The notes under the pieces were generated by a model. The model was not told the DNA's origin and made no database searches. It saw nothing but the letters and a program-made list of their open reading frames with translations. Positions 698-36,849 of a DNA stretch of 36,849 bases are shown one piece after another. Position numbers and translations under genes: made by a program. Source of the stretch: a virus (taxonomy: Duplodnaviria > Heunggongvirae > Uroviricota > Caudoviricetes); IMG/VR virus record IMGVR_UViG_2529292835_000026, positions 1-36,849 of that record. One strand, given 5' to 3'. Positions within the stretch are counted from its first letter, which is position 1. Each line of letters begins with the position of its first letter.

Positions 698-1060
698 GGG
701 GCTGATTCTGGATTCGACGGGATTTGCGAAACCCAAGGTGCATGCCGAGGGGCGGTTGGCCTCGTAAAAAGCCGCAAAAAATAGTCGCAAACGACGAAAA
801 CTACGCTTTAGCAGCTTAATAACCTGCTTAGAGCCCTCTCTCCCTAGCCTCCGCTCTTAGGACGGGGATCAAGAGAGGTCAAACCCAAAAGAGATCGCGT
901 GGAAGCCCTGCCTGGGGTTGAAGCGTTAAAACTTAATCAGGCTAGTTTGTTAGTGGCGTGTCCGTCCGCAGCTGGCAAGCGAATGTAAAGACTGACTAAG
1001 CATGTAGTACCGAGGATGTAGGAATTTCGGACGCGGGTTCAACTCCCGCCAGCTCCACCA
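698..1060 (+). ncRNA. ssrA: tmRNA (SsrA), 363 nt
   Basis: Starts GGGGCTGATTCTGGATTCGACGGG, contains the tag reading frame GCAAACGACGAAAACTACGCTTTAGCAGCTTAA (ANDENYALAA*), ends GGTTCAACTCCCGCCAGCTCCACCA. Confidence 0.95.
1016..1060. repeat. attL core: 45-bp direct repeat, 3' end of ssrA
   Basis: ATGTAGGAATTTCGGACGCGGGTTCAACTCCCGCCAGCTCCACCA repeated exactly at 36244-36288; flanking sequence diverges on both sides. Confidence 0.9.
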
Positions 1061-1070
1061 AATAAATCAA

Positions 1071-1103
1071 GGGGTTACGTGAAAGCGTAGCCCCTTTTTC
1101 TTT
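1071..1103 (+). terminator. Rho-independent terminator downstream of ssrA
   Basis: GGGGTTACG / CGTAGCCCC stem (one G-U pair), loop TGAAAG, followed by TTTTTCTTT. Confidence 0.6.
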
Positions 1104-1118
1104 GGTAGTGGCGGCAAA

Positions 1119-1183: not shown

Positions 1184-1666
1184 ATGGAAGAACTTCACTT
1201 TGTTTACATCAATGCAAATGGTCGTATCGGTGTTCACTCTATACAGGGCATCAGTTATAGCGAAAATCATATACAGGGCATTTGTAAGAACACCGATCGA
1301 ATAAAAACCTTCCGAAAAGACCGCATTCTTAAACAGTACGATTCACCAGAACAAGCCATTCAGGAATGCGCGTCATTCCTCCCCGAAAACTACTCACATC
1401 TCACTAAGCAGTCTGGTCCGAAAAAAAATACATTCGATGTGTGTTTCACCGGATTTAAGAAAGCAGATAAAGAAAGATTGGTTGATAAGGCGAATGAACA
1501 AGGATTAACGGTAAGAACCTCTGTAACCCAAAGCCTTCAGATGCTCTGTTGCGGTTACAATGCAGGCCCATCAAAAGTATCGGCAGCCAGGATGAAAGGC
1601 ACAATCATCATAGATGAGCCTGGCTTTATACATTTTCTTGAAACGGGTGAGATCCCAGATGAATAA
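1184..1666 (+). CDS. Small WYL-domain + BRCT-domain protein (160 aa), prophage accessory gene
   Basis: AAGAGG Shine-Dalgarno 8 nt upstream. N-terminus ends with the WYL-domain signature IKTFRKDRI; C-terminus (VCFTGF...GPSKVSAARMKGTIIIDEPGFIHFLE) has BRCT-like pattern resembling the LigA BRCT domain. Confidence 0.6.
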   Translation: MEELHFVYINANGRIGVHSIQGISYSENHIQGICKNTDRIKTFRKDRILKQYDSPEQAIQECASFLPENYSHLTKQSGPKKNTFDVCFTGFKKADKERLVDKANEQGLTVRTSVTQSLQMLCCGYNAGPSKVSAARMKGTIIIDEPGFIHFLETGEIPDE

Positions 1667-13603: not shown

Positions 13604-13626
13604 AGTTGTAACTAAGGAGGCGATTG

Positions 13627-14064
13627 ATGAAATCTTGGAAAAACCGAGGATTTAAAAAAAGGGTTCTTGAATATGTTTACTGTTTCTCCGCTGCTCCATT
13701 TTTAGCCATGTTCTACACGTTGTCAGAAAACCAGCTGACAATGTTTATAATTTTCTTCACTGTGAGTTTTTATCTCACTCTGATGGCATCCGTTTTTTTA
13801 ACAAAACGAGGATTTAACAAAGTATTCAAAGAATTCTTTAATTTATTATGGAACTATGAAACGGCCTTCGTTTTTTGCTATGGCCTTTATACTTATCTTT
13901 ATAGAATTGATGGGCAGAAAACTTTATCAAACCTCCTTACCATTATGTTTTCAGCTCACCCATGGACACTTATTTTCGGCATCGGACTCTTGGTTTTCAC
14001 AGTAATTTTCAGGTTTGCTCTGAGTGTTGCTGACTTGCTAGTTGAAGTTAAGTCAGATATATAA
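13627..14064 (+). CDS. Small polytopic membrane protein (about 145 aa), moron between V and S
   Basis: AAGGAGG 6 nt upstream of ATG at 13627 (the ORF track begins 3 nt earlier at a TTG); AT-rich; about four hydrophobic helices; opposite strand to the flanking late genes. Confidence 0.7.
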   Translation: MKSWKNRGFKKRVLEYVYCFSAAPFLAMFYTLSENQLTMFIIFFTVSFYLTLMASVFLTKRGFNKVFKEFFNLLWNYETAFVFCYGLYTYLYRIDGQKTLSNLLTIMFSAHPWTLIFGIGLLVFTVIFRFALSVADLLVEVKSDI

Positions 14065-21808: not shown

Positions 21809-22836
21809 TGGGAAAGAGTAAGAAGAACCGCGCTGCGTCGACGAAACAGATTCAGCATAAAAGCCAGACTTCAGCCGAAGCATTCAGCTTCGGTGATCCC
21901 GTTCCTGTTCTGGACCGCCGCGAATTGCTGGACTATGTGGAATGCGTACAGATGGATCGCTGGTATGAGCCGCCCGTCAGCTTTGACGGACTGGCACGAA
22001 CCTTCCGCGCCGCCGTGCATCACAGCTCACCGATTGCGGTGAAATGCAACATTCTGACCAGCACCTACATCCCTCACCCGCTGCTCAGCCAGCAGGCTTT
22101 TTCACGTTTTGTGCAGGACTATCTGGTATTCGGTAACGCCTACCTGGAGAAACGCACGAATCGATTCGGTGAAGTTATCGCCCTTGAGCCTGCGCTGGCA
22201 AAATACACCCGACGCGGATTAGATCTGGATACCTACTGGTTTGTGCAATACGGCATGACTACGCAGCCGTATCAGTTCACGAAAGGCAGCATCTTTCATC
22301 TGATGGAACCGGATATCAACCAGGAGATCTACGGCCTGCCCGGTTATCTTTCTGCCATTCCGTCAGCCCTGCTCAACGAGTCCGCCACGCTGTTCCGCCG
22401 CAAGTATTACATTAACGGCAGTCATGCAGGCTTCATCATGTACATGACCGATGCAGCGCAGAACCAGGAGGATGTGAACAACCTCCGCAATGCGATGAAA
22501 AGCGCCAAAGGTCCAGGCAACTTCCGCAACCTGTTTATGTACTCACCTAACGGCAAAAAGGATGGTCTTCAGATTATCCCGTTGTCAGAAGTCGCGGCGA
22601 AGGATGAATTTCTGAATATCAAAAATGTCAGCCGCGACGACATGATGGCTGCGCACCGCGTGCCGCCGCAAATGATGGGGATTATGCCTAATAATGTTGG
22701 AGGGTTTGGGGATGTAGAGAAAGCTAGTAAGGTTTTTGTTATAAATGAACTGATACCTTTACAAAAACGGTTACAAGAACTAAATTATTGGATAGATGAA
22801 GATATAATCCAATTTGAAGATTATAGTTTAACTTAA
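21808..22836 (+). CDS. Q: Portal protein gpQ-like
   Basis: ATG overlaps the P stop codon (TGATG); the ORF track starts 3 nt earlier at a TTG. Confidence 0.9.
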   Translation: MGKSKKNRAASTKQIQHKSQTSAEAFSFGDPVPVLDRRELLDYVECVQMDRWYEPPVSFDGLARTFRAAVHHSSPIAVKCNILTSTYIPHPLLSQQAFSRFVQDYLVFGNAYLEKRTNRFGEVIALEPALAKYTRRGLDLDTYWFVQYGMTTQPYQFTKGSIFHLMEPDINQEIYGLPGYLSAIPSALLNESATLFRRKYYINGSHAGFIMYMTDAAQNQEDVNNLRNAMKSAKGPGNFRNLFMYSPNGKKDGLQIIPLSEVAAKDEFLNIKNVSRDDMMAAHRVPPQMMGIMPNNVGGFGDVEKASKVFVINELIPLQKRLQELNYWIDEDIIQFEDYSLT

Positions 22837-22849
22837 ATAATGATAACAC

Positions 22850-22868
22850 AGGGCCTAGAATCGGCCCT
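22850..22868. terminator. Hairpin between convergent Q and HNH genes (non-canonical terminator)
   Basis: AGGGCC-TAGAATC-GGCCCT stem-loop; no U-tract on either strand. Confidence 0.3.
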
Positions 22869-22873
22869 AAAAA

Positions 22874-23545
22874 TTAAAAACCAAGCTCATCTCTGATTCT
22901 TGGGAATTTTTTCATTACTCGAATATCAGTTAATAAATGCCAACGCCAAAAAACAGAAAATGGATATGATACATTACACATTGGCTTTAGCTTATTCTTG
23001 GCCTCTTGGATTTCTTGTTCTGTGCTTCGATCACTGACAAGTTTCATTCTCCAACCAGTAAAGTAAAACAATTCATCTTGTAACTTCTCTGAGAGATTTG
23101 CTCTTGTAATGCCCCTCAACCCCGTACTCGAAGAGTTAAAACACTTATCTAATAATTTGACTGTATTTAAAACCTTTCTACTTGGTCTTTTTCTTCTTGG
23201 GTATACTTGAACACCACTCGTTATAGCGTTCCCTGCGAGATGAACAATCTCACTGAAAACATCAACATCACTCTTTGTGCAATCAAGTAAGTTTTCAAAA
23301 GAATCACTTTTAATACTATTGCATCGACTGCAAGCTAAAAATAGATTGTTCCAATCATATTTGAGCTCATCAAGATCACGATGTGGAATAAAATGTTCTA
23401 TCTCTGGATCCATAAGATTACCTTGCTCACAGAGATAACATTTTCCATGAAATATTTCGTCTAAAGCATTTACAACTGTTTTATGGTTATATACTTTTCT
23501 CGACAAGCATTGAGGTGCAGGAATATTTCTAGTAACATTAAACAT
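22874..23545 (-). CDS. HNH endonuclease, Septu PtuB-like
   Basis: HGKCYLCE ... EIEHFIPH ... NNLFLACSRCNSIKS = HNH motif; overlaps the upstream ATPase gene by 8 nt; AT-rich. Confidence 0.75.
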   Translation of the reverse strand: MFNVTRNIPAPQCLSRKVYNHKTVVNALDEIFHGKCYLCEQGNLMDPEIEHFIPHRDLDELKYDWNNLFLACSRCNSIKSDSFENLLDCTKSDVDVFSEIVHLAGNAITSGVQVYPRRKRPSRKVLNTVKLLDKCFNSSSTGLRGITRANLSEKLQDELFYFTGWRMKLVSDRSTEQEIQEAKNKLKPMCNVSYPFSVFWRWHLLTDIRVMKKFPRIRDELGF

Positions 23546-24791
23546 CGTCTTCCCTTTCGCTATAATCTAAATATTTACTCTTAGCGATCATAAAAGCTGC
23601 TTTTGAACTTTTATCAAGAAAATCAATACTCTTCTGTAACGTTTTCATTATAGAATGAAATCTATCGTCGAAGACATTATTTTCTACTAAAGTCATTAAT
23701 TCTTTAACTAATGCATTTAGCTTATCCGAAGATACATCCTCACCCAACAATCCCTTTATAATTGCTGTGTAAGAATACAATGATAAATCACCCATCTGAT
23801 CCAATGTTGAGAGATTAAATATAATCGCATCAGATACTGATTGGATTACGAAAGGTGAATGCGTAGAAACAATAAATTGTATTTGCGGAAAAGATGATGA
23901 AAAAAAACTAAATACTTTCTTTTGCAATGTTACATGAAGATGAGCATCAATTTCATCAATAAGTACTATCCCTGTCATATCATGTTTTCTGATTTTATCA
24001 AGCTCTGCTTTTATCAATAAATCAGTATAAATAGAAAGAATTGATGAAAAACCAGATGACAACTTATCAAGTCCAAATGGTTCCTTATTATTTTGTAAAA
24101 GATAGATTTTCAACTTGTCGAGATCAAAATCCATTCTAATACTTTCATCTTCAAAAAGTTCTTTTAAGTCATCATTAATACTCTCAATAATATCAAAGGC
24201 TCTTTTATAGTCATCATCCTTGCCCACTCCCTTACTGACTAAAGCATAATTCCACAATGTAACTATGTATCTTTCAAAATACATACCAGCATCAATCTTA
24301 GAATTATTTCTCTGTGCGTTCCCATACTCAGTTAACAACAAATCGAGGCTGCTAATCTTACCATCATTTTTTATTTTCGCTTCTCGAATAGCAGGAAATA
24401 ATCTTATAATTGATTTTTTCTTTTTTGCAGCAACCCTGAAATCAACCACATCATTAAAAGTAATATCAAAGCTCTCAAATTCTTTTAATTTTTCTTTCAG
24501 TCTCTCAATTTCTTCGTTTAAATAGCTATAATTACCATCCCCTCTATTTGAATACTTTAAGTTTTCTTGACTGGAATTCAATTCCTTTTGTAGCTGCTCC
24601 TTAGTATAAGGATCATGTGAATTAATCGATTTTTCTATAAACTCATAAATATTCTCGATCAACCTAGTTTTACCAGAGCCATTATCTCCTGATATTATTA
24701 GATTCTTACCATCAAGATTTAATGTGTAAGGCTCATCGTTCCTTTTAAAGAAGATAGTTTCGATGAAATGTCGCATTATTCCTCCCGTCAT
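23538..24791 (-). CDS. ABC/SMC-type ATPase, Septu PtuA-like
   Basis: Walker A GDNGSGKT, ABC signature LSSGFSS, Walker B VLIDEIDAHLH, H-loop STHSP. Alternative start at 24776 (MRHF...) has a GGGAGGA Shine-Dalgarno. Confidence 0.75.
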   Translation of the reverse strand: MTGGIMRHFIETIFFKRNDEPYTLNLDGKNLIISGDNGSGKTRLIENIYEFIEKSINSHDPYTKEQLQKELNSSQENLKYSNRGDGNYSYLNEEIERLKEKLKEFESFDITFNDVVDFRVAAKKKKSIIRLFPAIREAKIKNDGKISSLDLLLTEYGNAQRNNSKIDAGMYFERYIVTLWNYALVSKGVGKDDDYKRAFDIIESINDDLKELFEDESIRMDFDLDKLKIYLLQNNKEPFGLDKLSSGFSSILSIYTDLLIKAELDKIRKHDMTGIVLIDEIDAHLHVTLQKKVFSFFSSSFPQIQFIVSTHSPFVIQSVSDAIIFNLSTLDQMGDLSLYSYTAIIKGLLGEDVSSDKLNALVKELMTLVENNVFDDRFHSIMKTLQKSIDFLDKSSKAAFMIAKSKYLDYSEREDDV

Positions 24792-24866
24792 ACTTAATAG
24801 CTTTTAGATAATATGACATTACATGTTAGATTTCATCCGTTTTGTGAACATATCCACTGCCGCGCG

Positions 24867-24885
24867 CTCGTATCCCCGCCACGCC
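24867..24885. other. Candidate cohesive-end (cos) site
   Basis: Minus strand reads GGCGTGGCGGGGATACGAG; the first 13 nt equal the start of the 186-type cos sequence as I recall it (GGCGTGGCGGGGAAAGCAT). Position between the Tum-like module and Q fits P2/186 genome order. Confidence 0.4.
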
Positions 24886-25083
24886 TGCCCGCTTTATGTA
24901 GTGGTTTTCATGCGCCTGCATGACATAAGCAAAAGCCCGCCACTCCTGGCAGGCCTCAGCAAAAACGATCCTCTAACGATCATGCGATCTCATTCGTCAT
25001 AGTCATGCACAGCCAAGGGAAGCGTAAATCCGTATCTGAATGACCGCTGAAAAGCTAATCATACGGGTTTACAAAGATGAAAG

Positions 25084-25123
25084 TCCGCTGTGAGCGAAAA
25101 GCGGATATTTCCATTGTTTTATC
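25084..25123. terminator. Hairpin with T-rich tail in the cos/divergent-promoter region
   Basis: TCCGCT-GTGAGCGAAA-AGCGGA followed by TATTTCCATTGTTTTATC. Confidence 0.3.
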
Positions 25124-25228
25124 TTGATCTAGTAAAAACAATACCCTCTTTACAAACAAAAATAATGAGTTACTATTTGCAGCACCTTTTAACCCAAAGG
25201 TTTATAATTAAAAAGGAATGGCATACCG

Positions 25229-25882
25229 ATGAATAAATACAAACTTTTCGCACAGCTATCAAGATATTCATTTGAAGCGCAGATTGATGATTTCGAAAAA
25301 TATATCCTAGGAGCAGGCGGCCAAAACAGAGTTGACTTATCGGAATTAAAAAAAGCATATGAAGATGAAAAAAAGAATGCTCCTGACGATTATATTAATT
25401 ACTTAGAAGACTATTATTCAGAGCAATATGATTTCTTAGTTAACATACAACCAAATATTTTTAATAAATCTGCTTTGGTATCTTTATACTCATGCTTAGA
25501 GCACAACCTAAACGACTATTGCAATATATGTCAAAGGATTGTAAACACCAATATATCAGTAACCGATTTTAATGGTGATGGCATCCACAAAGCAAAAAGA
25601 TATTTAACAAAATTAATGGATATAAACTTTGGCCTGTCACAAGAGTGGCGATTCATGACAGAGTTTAACAAAGTAAGGAATTGCATAGTTCATGCTAATG
25701 GAGACATTAAAAAAATGAGCACAGCTGTAGCCTTAAAAGATATCATTGATAAAACACCTACTCTTTCATTAAACAATGAAAATAATATAATAATCTCCTT
25801 AAATTATTTAAAAGATACTATCACAAAAATTAGAAAACTCTTTCAATGGTTATATACACATCTGGATCAATCATCGAAATGA
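25229..25882 (+). CDS. Uncharacterised 217-aa protein with HEPN-like R-x4-H motif (candidate defence/abortive-infection RNase)
   Basis: AAGGAA upstream of ATG; very AT-rich; motif EFNKVRNCIVHANGD fits the HEPN R-x4-6-H signature; no other recognisable domain. Confidence 0.5.
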   Translation: MNKYKLFAQLSRYSFEAQIDDFEKYILGAGGQNRVDLSELKKAYEDEKKNAPDDYINYLEDYYSEQYDFLVNIQPNIFNKSALVSLYSCLEHNLNDYCNICQRIVNTNISVTDFNGDGIHKAKRYLTKLMDINFGLSQEWRFMTEFNKVRNCIVHANGDIKKMSTAVALKDIIDKTPTLSLNNENNIIISLNYLKDTITKIRKLFQWLYTHLDQSSK

Positions 25883-25982
25883 ATACGATAACATCTCAGT
25901 TTGTTATTGGTCTATTTTTGAAAACAGCTATCGATGATATTAGTCTGTTCTTCGTCAATTAATATGCAATCCGTTCATGACA

Positions 25983-26004
25983 CAGGGCTGCTGTTACAGC
26001 CCTG
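25983..26004. other. Perfect 8-bp-stem hairpin between convergent cargo genes
   Basis: CAGGGCTG-CTGTTA-CAGCCCTG; no U-tract; sits in a short GC-normal patch between two AT-rich genes. Confidence 0.3.
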
Positions 26005-26134
26005 ACAACCTTAGACTTCAATCGATTCAGAGATCTCTAACGCATCATCACCCGTTGAACTCACAGCGATAAGTAGACGCTGGCGGCAATAACACAGAAG
26101 TGTAGCGGGAATTTGAACCACATAATTTGGTTTG

Positions 26135-27001
26135 TTAGATGGCTTTGCTTCGATATTCAATTTCTAAAATCGCCTTTGTCATTGCCGCAATAGTTATAGC
26201 TTCTACCATAGTCAATTCAGGCTTGTTCAAGCTTCCGTGTCCAGCAGTAGGTAATTTGTTACGTAAATCATAAATATCTTTAACAGCATCAATAAGATTC
26301 TTAGGTAATTTTGACATTTTTTCGAACTGTTTAAAAAAACCACCCAATGACTCATTTGCCACATTCGGGTTTTGAGTGATTTCCTTAGCCATAGTTTCTA
26401 AAACATTAGAGGCTGCGTGCAGTGCACCTGCCGGATCATTATTATCCAAGCAATTATTCATTCTATCTATTTGCTGAACGATATTTGGGTGCAATCTCTT
26501 TAAGTAATCACTAGCCAATTCTTCATTGAAATTTTTGACACTTTCAAAAACATCGCAATCTAAATAAAATTTAGGATTGACTGACATCCATGTATATTTC
26601 CAATCATTTTCTAAATTATCTTTTTCCGCAATCCGCCTGCCAGTGTCCTGATCTATCTCATCAACATATTTACACATATAATCGGCGTAGTAGTGTAAAT
26701 ATCTAAATGATATTTCTGGGCAAAAATTACTAACTGATGCAAGGCCGCCATATTCTTTTGTAGTAACTGTAGGGACTTCTTCATCACATAAAGATGAGAA
26801 AGTGGTTCTTTCCCAAAATTCGCCCAACTCTTTTTCTTTCCTAGTTGCCATACCAGCTATCATATTGATGCTTGAGAGCAAAACTACACTCTGATAGTAT
26901 CGAGGACATCTGTATGAACTAGCATATGGGCATATTGATGATGCTTTACGATTAATACGCTCTTTTTCCCACCAATTTTTATCAGGAATAATTCTTTGCA
27001 T
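26135..27001 (-). CDS. Uncharacterised 288-aa protein, candidate defence cargo
   Basis: Long AT-rich ORF convergent with the 217-aa gene; Cys-rich N-terminus (CPYASSYRCPRYY); no family recognised by eye; no clear Shine-Dalgarno at the first ATG. Confidence 0.5.
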   Translation of the reverse strand: MQRIIPDKNWWEKERINRKASSICPYASSYRCPRYYQSVVLLSSINMIAGMATRKEKELGEFWERTTFSSLCDEEVPTVTTKEYGGLASVSNFCPEISFRYLHYYADYMCKYVDEIDQDTGRRIAEKDNLENDWKYTWMSVNPKFYLDCDVFESVKNFNEELASDYLKRLHPNIVQQIDRMNNCLDNNDPAGALHAASNVLETMAKEITQNPNVANESLGGFFKQFEKMSKLPKNLIDAVKDIYDLRNKLPTAGHGSLNKPELTMVEAITIAAMTKAILEIEYRSKAI

Positions 27002-27439
27002 AATTTAGCTACTATCTCACGAGTGAATGAATGTTTAGCCTTCTGCACAGTTTATCAGTTCCGGCATGCCTACTGCTACCCCACTGATTCAACTTCAAGT
27101 TATGAGTTAAAGCGATTCGGTTTCGCTAGATGACACACTAGTGTTAATTTATGGATAAAAATTTATCACTTAAAATTAACTAATGCCTGTTGCGACCAAA
27201 AGTGTGCTGGAATATTATTTTCGTCTGGCCTATTATCAAGCTAATTATCCAAATTAGAGTTACTCTCATTCATCAGCAACAAATAAATACACCTGTTCAC
27301 TTTCTCAAAGTGTTCCTGTTTTATTTTTAAAGCAAACAACGCCGCCTATTCGTCCGAATGTACAACAAACATCAGGTTCTGACACAAAGTGGACGATCAC
27401 TTATCAAAATGACCGCCCACCTTACACCTCATTTCACTC

Positions 27440-27484
27440 GTTGCCCAAACTCCCCCCAACAGGATAAATCCTCTTGGGGGCAAC
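27440..27484. other. Extended G/C-rich stem-loop just downstream of the DinI-like gene
   Basis: CCCCCCAA ... TTGGGGG with inner AGGAT/ATCCT pairing, flanked by GTTGCCC/GGGCAAC; no clear U-tract. Confidence 0.3.
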
Positions 27485-27489
27485 GTTTC

Positions 27490-27723
27490 TTAATGCAGCC
27501 AGCTGTCGTCTTCCCACACCTTCTGCATAATTTTCAGCACTTGTTTTCTTTCTTCGTCCAGTTGCAGTCCGGTCAGTTCCACACCGTTAGAGCTACCTTT
27601 GCGGATACGAATTACCGTTTTGGGATACAGGGGGCGCAGATTGCGGTAAAGCTCGGATTCAAGGGCATCCAGGGTAGACTGGCTAATCTTCTGCTCTTTA
27701 TCGATCATTATTTCAATGCGCAT
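27490..27723 (-). CDS. DinI-family protein
   Basis: MRIEIMIDK...LDALESELYRNLRPLYP...VIRIRKGSSNGVEL...ERKQVLKIMQKVWEDDSW aligns with DinI; GAGGTGA Shine-Dalgarno before the internal Met used as start. Confidence 0.8.
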   Translation of the reverse strand: MRIEIMIDKEQKISQSTLDALESELYRNLRPLYPKTVIRIRKGSSNGVELTGLQLDEERKQVLKIMQKVWEDDSWLH

Positions 27724-27733
27724 AAAAGTCACC

Positions 27734-27922
27734 TCAGCTGATGACATCCATTGAGCGGTTGTATTCGTGGGTTCTGATTTTTGCCATGAGTTCATCAGTC
27801 AATTCAGAAACCCACTGCAGAGCCAGCCCCTTCTCTTCATCACTACACTCACTAGCCGCTACAAGCTTAAGAAAAAAATCAATGCGCTGGAGCTTCAAAG
27901 ACTCCAAAAAATAGTCCTGCAT
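27734..27922 (-). CDS. Small LexA-regulated ORF (62 aa), candidate Tum-like antirepressor component
   Basis: AGGAGG upstream of ATG at 27922; LexA box 45-60 bp upstream; directly followed by the DinI-like gene. The longer ORF start would include the LexA box. Confidence 0.45.
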   Translation of the reverse strand: MQDYFLESLKLQRIDFFLKLVAASECSDEEKGLALQWVSELTDELMAKIRTHEYNRSMDVIS

Positions 27923-27965
27923 CTTTCCTCCTATAACACCACGAGCAATACTGTATACATGACCA

Positions 27966-27981
27966 CTGTTTATATTTACAG
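27966..27981. promoter_or_regulatory. LexA (SOS) box
   Basis: CTGTTTATATTTACAG = CTGT-N8-ACAG with AT-rich spacer, embedded in cCACTGTTTATATTTACAGTAt. Confidence 0.75.
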
Positions 27982-28075
27982 TATATAATAATCTTACTGA
28001 TGTAAAACGTTTTTTTACGTTCATCAGCCTGATATGCCTGGTATTATTAAGAGCACGAATTGTTAATCCGCGTAA

Positions 28076-33837: not shown

Positions 33838-34470
33838 ATGTTAAACATCAGAATGGGTTCCGATACGGGAGGTAAGGCAGCTATTGAGAGGCTGCTTGAG
33901 GCTTATGGATTCACAACTAAGCAGGCATTAAGCGAGCACCTGAATGTCTCAAAAAGTACTATGGCAAACAGAGTGTTACGTGACAGTTTTCCTGCTGACT
34001 GGATAATTCAGTGTGCACTAGAAACCGGTGTTTCGTTACTTTGGTTAGCCACAGGACAGGGAAGCATGAAAGAAGGATACGAGCCTGAGAAAAGATCTCA
34101 TAACGAGAACAAACAAGCAATTAAACCGTTATCCAAACTCATAACTCCATCTATTCCTAAAGGAACCTTGGAAAATGGACAACTCAGTATTGATGAAGAG
34201 ATTTTCCTAGACCACAGCATATTACCTGCAGATTATGAAGAATCGATGTTCTTAGAAACCCCTACTGATTGTTATCTCATCGATAAATCAGTTAAACAAG
34301 TCAGCAATGGATTCTGGCTTATCAATATTGATGGAATGATTATTATTGCAAAAATCATGCGGATTCCCGGCAATAAGATTGTAGTAAATCAAGATGAAGC
34401 ATCTTTCGAGTGCTCTGCTGATGATGTGGAAGTTATTGGGCGTGCAGTCAAAGTAATAAAGAGTATCTAA
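33838..34470 (+). CDS. Immunity repressor (186 CI-like)
   Basis: N-terminal helix-turn-helix (TTKQALSEHLNVSKSTMANRV); located immediately upstream of int and divergent from the early operon. Confidence 0.8.
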   Translation: MLNIRMGSDTGGKAAIERLLEAYGFTTKQALSEHLNVSKSTMANRVLRDSFPADWIIQCALETGVSLLWLATGQGSMKEGYEPEKRSHNENKQAIKPLSKLITPSIPKGTLENGQLSIDEEIFLDHSILPADYEESMFLETPTDCYLIDKSVKQVSNGFWLINIDGMIIIAKIMRIPGNKIVVNQDEASFECSADDVEVIGRAVKVIKSI

Positions 34471-34472
34471 AC

Positions 34473-35489
34473 ATGACTGTCAGAAAACAGCCAAACGGTA
34501 AATGGTTGTGCGAGTGCTATCCCAATGGACGCAATGGCAAGCGCGTGCGTAAGCAATTTGCTACGAAAGGCGAAGCCATTGCTTTTGAAAGCTTCACAAT
34601 GGAAGAAGTGAACAAAAAACCATGGCTGGGGGAAAAGGAAGATCGGCGACACCTATCAGAATTAATTGAGCAGTGGTATTCCCTGTATGGTCAAACACTC
34701 GCAGACCCCAAGCGCCTCATGGCGAAACTTAGAATTATCTGTAATGGTCTAGGCGATCCCATCGCTTCAGAACTGACAGCCGGTGACTTTACGAAATACC
34801 GCGAAGCACGGTTAAAAGGGGAAGTACGAAATGAAGATGGCACGTTTATGTCGCCCGTTAAGCCCCGCACGGTAAACCTTGAACAGCGCAATCTATCATC
34901 TGTTTTTGGTACACTGAAAAAGTTGGGCCACTGGTCAGCCTCCAACCCGCTTGCTGGGCTGCCAACATTTAAAATTGCTGAGAGTGAATTGGCGTTCCTG
35001 ACCCCGGAAGAAATTAAACGTCTGCTGGATGCCTGCGCCGATTCTCAAAGCTCCAGCCTGCTTTTGATTGCAAAAATATGCCTGGCCACCGGCGCACGCT
35101 GGAGCGAAGCCGAAAACCTGCAGAGTCATCAGGTATCAAAATACCGTATCACTTATACCAAGACCAAAGGCAAGAAAAACCGAACTGTGCCTATTTCTAA
35201 GGATTTATATGAAGAACTGCCTAAGAATAGGGGGAAGTTATTCACCCCATGCAGAAAAGCCTTTGAGCGTGCAGTAAAGCGGGCTGGTATCGATCTGCCA
35301 GAGGGTCAATGTACTCACGTTCTGCGTCATACATTCGCTAGCCATTTTATGATGAATGGTGGAAACATATTGGTTTTGCGGGATATCCTAGGACATTCAG
35401 ATATAAAAATGACCATGGTCTATGCACACTTCGCCCCAGACCATTTAGAAGATGCCGTAACTAAAAATCCTTTATTTAATTTGAGGTAA
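34473..35489 (+). CDS. int: Tyrosine integrase (P2 Int-like)
   Basis: C-terminal catalytic motifs ...HVLRHTFASHFMMNGG...LGHSDIKMTMVYAHF (R...HxxR...Y). Confidence 0.9.
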   Translation: MTVRKQPNGKWLCECYPNGRNGKRVRKQFATKGEAIAFESFTMEEVNKKPWLGEKEDRRHLSELIEQWYSLYGQTLADPKRLMAKLRIICNGLGDPIASELTAGDFTKYREARLKGEVRNEDGTFMSPVKPRTVNLEQRNLSSVFGTLKKLGHWSASNPLAGLPTFKIAESELAFLTPEEIKRLLDACADSQSSSLLLIAKICLATGARWSEAENLQSHQVSKYRITYTKTKGKKNRTVPISKDLYEELPKNRGKLFTPCRKAFERAVKRAGIDLPEGQCTHVLRHTFASHFMMNGGNILVLRDILGHSDIKMTMVYAHFAPDHLEDAVTKNPLFNLR

Positions 35490-35499
35490 GTAGTAATTT

Positions 35500-36168
35500 A
35501 TGAATAGCGAACTAGAGTTACTTATAAAAATATTATTCCCTTCCCTATCTGCCATTATATCCTTATTAGGGCTTAAAACAGGGTGGACTTATAAAAAAGA
35601 CAAACTATTCACATCACGTAAAAACATTAGCGAATTTTCATATCAGATGTATAAAAGCAGTGAAGATCCGACCTTCAAAAAACTGGCGGAAGATTACGGC
35701 ATTGCTGCATTAACCAAAGATAACACATTGACAAAAAAACAAAGATTAATATTACTCAACACAACAAACCCCGTTAGCGATATAGATAATTATTCCAAAT
35801 GTCAAAGTCTAATTTCCATTACCACCCATAAAGAAATATTCGCATGGAATAAAAAAAGATATAAATACAGCATATATAGAAAATTAATAAAAATCATAAC
35901 AACTCTAATTTACTTCATGAGCAGTCTCATCGTAGCACTTCCTTTCAGTTATTCTGTTGTAGTAAGTGCTAAGATGATGGAGAAGATAAACCATCTAACT
36001 ACTTGGCAATACTTTGGTTTAAGCAGCTATTTTGTGGTATCGGGAGTAGCAATATGCTTTATCTGCCTAGATAAGCTCTCCAAGATTAAGATCGCCGAGA
36101 GATTAATCGTTTCGAATAGGCGTTTAGGCGACAAATGCAGTGGCGGCACTTTGGCGGCAGAAAGTTAA
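35500..36168 (+). CDS. Membrane protein (222 aa), cargo between int and attR
   Basis: Very AT-rich; GAGGT upstream; three hydrophobic helices (N-terminal and two C-terminal); no family recognised. Confidence 0.6.
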   Translation: MNSELELLIKILFPSLSAIISLLGLKTGWTYKKDKLFTSRKNISEFSYQMYKSSEDPTFKKLAEDYGIAALTKDNTLTKKQRLILLNTTNPVSDIDNYSKCQSLISITTHKEIFAWNKKRYKYSIYRKLIKIITTLIYFMSSLIVALPFSYSVVVSAKMMEKINHLTTWQYFGLSSYFVVSGVAICFICLDKLSKIKIAERLIVSNRRLGDKCSGGTLAAES

Positions 36169-36243: not shown

Positions 36244-36288
36244 TTGAAATGCTATGTAGGAATTTCGGACGCGGGTTCAACTCCCGCC
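36244..36288. repeat. attR core: 45-bp direct repeat, displaced ssrA 3' end
   Basis: Identical to 1016-1060. Confidence 0.9.
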
Positions 36289-36322
36289 AGCTCCACCACT
36301 TTTTAGTTGTTTGAAGTTCAAT

Positions 36323-36357
36323 GAAGTCTACTAAGCCCACACAGCACAAGCTCTGCG
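36323..36357 (+). terminator. Rho-independent terminator downstream of attR
   Basis: AAGCCCACACAG / CTCTGCGGGCTT imperfect stem followed by TTTTTT. Confidence 0.5.
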
Positions 36358-36463
36358 GGCTTTTTTACGTCTATTGTCGTCCAGTGAGAATTGCTGAGAA
36401 CTACGAGTTATGGCACCCTGAATGGGACCCACTAAGAAGGGTCCAAAAACCGAGGGTCCCAAA

Positions 36464-36849
<386 letters not shown>

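Follow-up and report, generated by a model that had tools for sequence, protein, structure and literature searches.

Familiar examples of the inner-membrane exclusion and abortive-infection proteins associated with prophages are T4 Imm, P22 SieA, HK97 gp15 and lambda RexB. Another line of comparison is provided by the genes residing between int and the attachment site. In the curated record of phage 186 the lysogenic pL operon comprises cI, int and Orf69, with a predicted terminator beyond attP, an annotation which constitutes a documented precedent for a gene occupying the int-attP slot within the lysogenic transcript. A 2026 survey of P2-like prophages describes the int-att interval as an 'atypical' minor defence hotspot, accounting for 3% of the P2 defence systems (PMC13586616), and GAPS1, a single-protein PD-(D/E)xK defence, has been validated by experiment (bioRxiv 10.1101/2023.03.28.534373).

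The window analysed here, that is the whole stretch of 36,849 nucleotides, contains a 35 kb P2-like prophage of the Fels-2/186 type, inserted in ssrA and bounded by 45-nt repeats, and is matched by the prophage gene map of E. coli ETEC-2265 (NZ_CP023346), which includes the gene of interest, ORF222. With this gene a new protein family is encountered at a type of locus that is already known from recent descriptions; the position and architecture of ORF222 suggest a possible role in exclusion or lysogenic conversion. Like Imm, SieA, gp15 and RexB, its product is predicted to be a small, alpha-helical protein of the inner membrane, is encoded next to the immunity and integration module and is presumably made in the lysogen; unlike them, it would expose next to nothing to the periplasm and would have a conserved cytoplasmic domain of ~100 aa inserted between the first and second transmembrane helices (TM1 and TM2).

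The prophage and its lysogenic transcript

The P2/186 gene set spans the window, and ORF222 lies inside the element between int and attR, the position expected of hotspot cargo. The early region is organised as in 186, with cII and an apl-like gene, then cI, int and ORF222 on the other strand. The integrase, composed of an Int_N and a Phage_integrase domain, shares 92-95% identity with its counterparts in Fels-2, SopEPhi, RE-2010 and Cartapus, and for Fels-2 and SopEPhi integration in ssrA is known (PMC3448106). The initial annotation described a 222-aa reading frame of very low GC located 10 bp after the integrase stop codon and followed by attR, and all these elements are present: ORF222 starts with ATG after a 10 bp gap from the int stop (35489), its GC content is 34.5% (GC3 36%), int having 46% and the prophage 49.5%, and attR, 85 bp downstream of the gene, forms one copy of a 45-nt exact direct repeat (1016-1060 and 36254-36298). 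Besides tmRNA, no RNA was detected in the window by Rfam. The coordinates of the relevant features are collected in Table 1.

The genes cI, int and ORF222 are arranged on one strand with gaps of only 2 and 10 bp. This spacing, together with the organisation of the 186 operon, suggests that the lysogenic promoter drives a transcript common to cI, int and ORF222, in which case the latter would be produced continuously at a low level in lysogens. The transcript would end at the native ssrA terminator past attR, its likely 3' end since this is the only terminator-like site downstream. The strong phage-borne terminator just across the att core would close the lysogenic operon after ORF222 in the circular phage, and in the lysogen would end ssrA. 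A consensus promoter scan found no promoter for ORF222, and we therefore infer both its membership of the operon and its expression in the lysogen; the antisense promoter-like match at 35818-35789 returned by the scan is below shuffled expectation. The sole Shine-Dalgarno-like element, GAGG, precedes the start codon by 13 nt, such that translation may be weak or coupled to that of int. H-NS may silence AT-rich cargo.

The co-orientation and tight spacing with cI and int could also be taken to indicate that ORF222 serves the phage itself, for example in the timing of induction or lysis or as an anchor for a lysogeny function, or that it interferes with a satellite of the P4/CP4-57 type sharing the ssrA site; both here and in most homologous loci, attR is immediately followed by an island with an integrase of the P4/CP4-57 type. 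Yet many fully syntenic phages with the same int dispense with ORF222, including the viable Fels-2, RE-2010, Cartapus and MLG42, the gene occurs in none of 50,697 deposited phage genomes, and copies of the family are also found outside prophages, so that we consider such a role quite improbable.

Table 1. Features of the prophage, the ORF222 cassette and other loci (window coordinates)
Feature	Coordinates	Strand	Remarks
attL core	1016..1060	+	3' end of intact tmRNA gene 698-1060
Strong phage-borne terminator	1069..1106 (or 1069-1096)	+	12-bp stem; just across att core
160-aa ORF between attL and ogr	1184-1666	+	weak C-terminal likeness to DEDDh exonucleases; PADLOC candidate PDC-S48
146-aa ORF, 36% GC	13624-14064	+ (opposite strand)	between baseplate gene V and tail-completion gene; P2 orf30 moron position
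PtuB/HNH	22874-23545	-	E 4e-81
PtuA	23538-24791	-	E 7e-122
Uncharacterised ORF, Septu block	25229-25882	+	weak RTasHEPN match, 5e-05
Uncharacterised ORF, Septu block	26135-27001	-	
186-type CI repressor	33838..34470	+	first gene of same-strand cI-int-ORF222 string; 2-bp gap to int
Fels-2-type tyrosine integrase (int)	34473..35489	+	338 aa; 92% identical to Fels-2 Int
Low-GC cassette, 670 bp	35471..36140	.	blastn boundaries; absent in empty-slot sister phages, replaced by other cargo elsewhere
ORF222 cargo gene	35500..36168	+	222 aa, predicted three-pass inner-membrane protein; RefSeq WP_001083625.1, 'hypothetical protein'; phrog_21256
TM1	35512..35580	+	residues about 5-27; short acidic N-terminus, predicted periplasmic
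Conserved cytoplasmic domain	35581..35880	+	residues 28-127; predicted
TM2 / periplasmic loop / TM3	35881..36078	+	residues 128-150 / 151-170 (short, unconserved) / 171-193
Cytoplasmic C-terminal helix	36079..36165	+	AE.LI motif, then lineage-specific tail
attR core	36254..36298	+	displaced copy of last 45 nt of ssrA
Native ssrA terminator	36348..36372 (or 36348-36362)	+	beyond attR; sole terminator-like site after ORF222

Cargo of the int-att interval and distribution of the family

In blastn comparisons the homology with sister phages ends at about 35470-35482, around the int stop, and restarts at 36141, 28 bp before the ORF222 stop. The last nine codons of ORF222 run into the conserved attP arm, which explains why the protein has a lineage-specific C-terminal tail. 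From the int stop to the att core there are 136 bp in phages with an empty slot, as against 783 bp here. The slot is empty in Fels-2, where only about 156 bp follow int in the record, and likewise in Yersinia phage MLG42.

The content of the slot was surveyed in 80 IMG/VR contigs carrying an int of at least 89% identity, plus several phage records. Seventeen contigs had an empty slot, and at least six unrelated cargo families were found besides that of ORF222. These comprise a soluble family of ~400 aa (14 contigs, including RE-2010 gp01 and Cartapus gp33), a family of ~330-364 aa with N-terminal transmembrane helices (13 contigs), a family of ~510 aa identified as GapS1 (9 contigs; NF047931, 3e-128), a transposase of the IS5 type, a 585-aa reading frame on the opposite strand identified as a dCTP-deaminase defence protein (PDLC02373, 2.6e-146, with 2.3e-144 for a second dCTP-deaminase match in the interval), and a 387-aa protein with two transmembrane helices. 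The ORF222 family itself occupies the slot in 2 survey contigs, and a dedicated scan yielded 22 further loci. Everything but the IS has a GC content of 0.30-0.35. In Siccibacter colletis the dCTP deaminase adjoins an ORF222 homologue within the int-att interval, and an identical cassette is found together with either of two cI immunity types.

Like the GapS1 and dCTP-deaminase genes, ORF222 is a single-gene, low-GC cassette swapped in and out of the same slot, and it begins within about 10 bp of the int stop on the int strand. It differs from them in being a small membrane protein rather than a soluble nuclease or deaminase, and has no kinship with them in sequence or fold. Phage 186 Orf69 resembles ORF222 in lying between int and attP with a terminator across attP, but it is an 83-aa soluble repeat peptide, and kinship was rejected as BLASTP gave no alignment at E <= 100. 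Likewise rejected was a relationship to the slot's other family of membrane cargo, which consists of three transmembrane helices and a soluble domain (hhalign probability 3.9%).

On the sequence evidence, it is well supported that ORF222 is accessory ('moron') cargo of an int-attP diversity hotspot. The initial annotation called the interval a classic moron site; the swappable low-GC cassette in a diversity hotspot agrees with the substance of this view, but 'classic' is too strong a word for a minor, atypical hotspot (PMC13586616). Since the slot carries only 3% of the P2 defence systems, the argument for a defence function from location is a weak one. As a conserved three-pass membrane protein encoded by a swappable cassette, placed directly behind cI and int in a slot that also houses validated defence genes, ORF222 may well act against incoming phages at the inner membrane of the lysogen.

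Two observations on other cargo may be added. The soluble ~400-aa family (for example contig L013 3527-4732, and contigs L061 and L063) is the commonest uncharacterised cargo of the slot; it has no match in Pfam, NCBIfam or PADLOC, its Cartapus member gp33 is annotated as 'putative RES protein, NAD+ binding', and we regard it as another defence candidate. The IMG/VR contig L037 (6321-8324) harbours two cargo units after int, in the order of a 328-aa protein with three transmembrane helices, a fragment ending in an integrase C-terminal peptide (EDAVTKNPL...), and an ORF222 homologue, an arrangement suggesting that cassettes were acquired in tandem or one within another, through recombination at the 3' end of int.

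As far as curated libraries are concerned, the original statement that no family could be recognised for ORF222 is correct. Among the PHROGs, however, PHROG 21256 (function unknown) includes the protein over its full length (E 6.6e-155, 514 bits; residues 1-222, profile positions 1-222), and the profile of this family matches 59 of the 62 family members tested. The literature yielded nothing on either the PHROG identifier or WP_001083625.1. Homologues with an intact reading frame of 207-222 aa are present in E. coli, Siccibacter, Cronobacter, Klebsiella and metagenome contigs, and comparison with ORF222 gives saturated synonymous differences (pS 0.75-0.84) with a pN of only 0.19-0.45, and hence a pN/pS of roughly 0.25-0.6. 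Given intact homologues and low pN at saturated synonymous sites, ORF222 is not merely a fortuitous reading frame.

Among 5.8 billion proteins, a word-indexed search retrieved 22 clusters of relatives, all enterobacterial, and a full HMM search of 1.84 billion representative proteins retrieved only 76 relatives at E <= 1e-3, nearly all of them 196-250 aa long and of common architecture. Of 5426 complete E. coli genomes, 29 carry the cassette at >=99% identity, ETEC, STEC and poultry isolates among them, and a 53%-identical allele in two more brings the family total to 31 of 5426, a rarity that counts against the defence reading. No copy was found among 72,556 plasmids, and two scans of GTDB genome contigs returned nothing.

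The cassette proteins have diverged far more than the adjoining integrase, being only 47-53% identical where the neighbouring int is 91-95% identical; in the same pairs dN is 0.22-0.49 for ORF222 and 0.03-0.05 for int, and synonymous sites are saturated in ORF222 only. As far as sequence comparison can indicate, the contrast fits either an exchange of old alleles or fast evolution, with purifying selection on the protein. Members of the family also occupy other positions. In a second lineage of 186-like prophages a 31%-identical protein is encoded after cI in the lysogenic string, one copy follows flhA in an island which also carries an OLD-type ATPase, and solo chromosomal genes occur in Klebsiella quasipneumoniae (a cluster of 245 sequences). 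Similarly, a 40%-identical homologue (contig L044, 6356-7645) follows an intact ssrA at a distance of 281 bp in an enterobacterial chromosome of ~36% GC, with neither an integrase nor a second att copy at the locus, which indicates that the family is linked to ssrA independently of the phage; this homologue could be an island remnant or the source of the gene captured by the phage. The solo and island copies imply that a gene of this family works, or at least persists, alone.

The phage-free copies, fixed in K. quasipneumoniae and adjacent to ssrA in another enterobacterium, together with the pathogenic and poultry carriers, are also what might be expected of a lysogenic-conversion or host-physiology factor affecting, for example, envelope stress, transport, tolerance of colicins or antibiotics, or colonisation. 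Against this stand the lack of a signal peptide, enzyme motif, transporter fold or link to a virulence locus, and the circumstance that the known genes of the int-att slot are defence genes, and we deem a host factor of this type improbable.

Predicted topology and candidate function

The three transmembrane segments originally claimed for ORF222 reappear as three hydrophobic stretches in a Kyte-Doolittle scan (residues ~5-27, 128-155 and 171-193, with 19-residue means up to 2.1) and as long helices in an AlphaFold2 model based on a 62-sequence alignment (pLDDT 92, pTM 0.80), which supersedes an earlier, poor model from 19 close sequences (pLDDT 66). In the model, helix 2-54 comprises TM1 running on into the cytoplasm and is followed by a compact head (57-116) of three short helices and a beta-hairpin, by TM2 (124-146) with a subsequent loop of ~17 residues containing two short helices, and by a long helix (168-214) made of TM3 and its cytoplasmic extension.

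The cytoplasmic domain contains, in order, the motifs SEF, GYAAL.GD and QR..LL, the beta-hairpin, and F.WK..R....YR. It is the most conserved part of the protein (mean top-residue frequency 0.43), whereas the TM2-TM3 loop is neutral and the least conserved (0.18). Near-invariant in the family are W116, R127, Y138 and A199, the latter belonging to the AE.LI motif and 92% conserved; a catalytic-looking constellation of residues is not evident in the family. Averaged over the 62 sequences, the cytoplasmic domain has a net charge of +6 (18.4 K+R against 12.1 D+E), and applying the positive-inside rule to this family-wide bias predicts an N-out/C-in topology with almost all of the structured mass in the cytoplasm. 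The basic helical domain of ~100 residues and the C-terminal helix would accordingly face the cytoplasm, with ~17 unconserved residues exposed to the periplasm, and long continuous helices would join the cytoplasmic domain to the membrane helices.

Topology prediction and a search for remote homologues had been proposed initially as checks, homology to a known housekeeping membrane protein counting against a phage-related role. The former yields three helices in the N-out/C-in orientation with a positive-inside bias across 62 sequences, and in the latter no relative was found in Pfam, NCBIfam, PADLOC, PDB or BFVD, nor, with PHROGs included, any homology to a known defence, exclusion or abortive-infection protein. 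When ORF222 and all 62 family members were compared with Pfam, NCBIfam, PADLOC and PHROGs, only the unannotated phrog_21256 matched. No relatives were found in PDB or BFVD, the best BFVD match being not better than E 0.27, and a PDB sequence-profile search gave designed helical proteins and noise only. The PADLOC comparison produced isolated weak matches to Cas2_II (0.0073) and 1TM-TIR (0.012), each in one of the 62 members, and an assignment of ORF222 to the 1TM-TIR type was rejected as a chance match.

Proteins of the TolQ/ExbB type measure ~220-240 aa and have an N-out TM1, a cytoplasmic loop of ~100 aa, a TM2-TM3 hairpin and a cytoplasmic C-terminus, and ORF222 resembles TolQ and ExbB in size, and MotA, TolQ and ExbB in its predicted topology of three helices, the first two separated by a large cytoplasmic loop. 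One might thus imagine a stator mimic disturbing the Tol- or TonB-dependent entry of phages or colicins, and ExbB (6tyi_A) appears in the Foldseek list; but with neither a MotA_ExbB domain in Pfam nor an ExbB-like fold in the fold searches, ORF222 was rejected as a member of the TolQ/ExbB family, and the mimic is disfavoured as very improbable.

The reading we prefer, albeit tentatively and with slightly less than even confidence, is that ORF222 is a single-gene anti-phage protein of the lysogen's inner membrane, a sensor and effector combined, acting in a manner resembling abortive infection. During infection the cytoplasmic domain would sense some component of the phage or of the host on the cytoplasmic surface of the membrane, whereupon the helices, perhaps as an oligomer, would compromise the membrane or otherwise halt the infection. 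A cytoplasm-facing sensor joined to a membrane effector is favoured because the conserved mass is cytoplasmic, the helical link is rigid, and the periplasmic exposure is minimal and unconserved.

The same cassette, hotspot and 186-operon context also accommodates strict superinfection exclusion, in which ORF222 in the inner membrane would block the passage of the incoming genome and leave the cell unharmed. As a small and presumably lysogen-expressed inner-membrane protein it resembles T4 Imm, P22 SieA and HK97 gp15, and both the narrow taxonomic range and the fast divergence relative to int fit the tracking of particular phages. However, only about 4 + 17 residues are periplasmic, the loop is the least conserved and the conserved mass cytoplasmic, and no annotated exclusion protein was matched in PHROGs, PADLOC or Pfam. 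On the predicted topology a classical, periplasm-facing exclusion protein is less likely, although a variant might bind, from the cytoplasmic side, tape-measure or pilot proteins or the host inner-membrane channel which they use; this block of genome passage from the inside is the main rival of the preferred reading, though we rate it as rather unlikely.

A more specific version of the sensor-effector proposal, which we consider possible but doubtful, is that ORF222 founds a new family of membrane-embedded single-protein anti-phage sensor-effectors without detectable fold relatives. Here the cytoplasmic head between TM1 and the TM2-TM3 hairpin would gate an oligomeric membrane lesion or block genome translocation from inside, and the 670-bp cassette would spread via the int-att slot of ssrA-targeting P2-like phages, occasionally being domesticated as a solo gene.

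Should ORF222 protect against phages, a compact, 0.67-kb single-gene membrane defence with an unrecognised fold would be added to the catalogue, and the little-studied int-att slot of ssrA-targeting P2-like prophages, in which the present sample contains two families of validated defence genes and three or more uncharacterised families, would be a productive place to look. Moreover, since the temperate phage that bears the gene resides in ETEC, STEC and poultry strains of E. coli, a protective ORF222 could affect host range in phage therapy. Without a phage phenotype, ORF222 would be an ordinary hypothetical moron.

Other loci in the window

Several further loci deserve mention. A complete Septu system occupies the gpA-portal (tin/old) hotspot at 22874-24791 (-), surrounded by a low-GC block (22500-28000) which also contains two uncharacterised reading frames (Table 1). 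The 146-aa reading frame in the tail region has no match in Pfam or PADLOC. In the circular phage the 160-aa reading frame near attL and ORF222 would share a strand and flank attP, separated by the strong terminator (1069-1096); the Cartapus homologue of the 160-aa frame is annotated as 'putative exonuclease'. Finally, the CP4-57/P4-type integrase past attR (36464-36849), which is intact in ETEC-2265, is interrupted here, the identity breaking at 36625, and the reading frame at 36691-36801 (-) we take to resemble the C-terminus of an IS21-family IstB ATPase.
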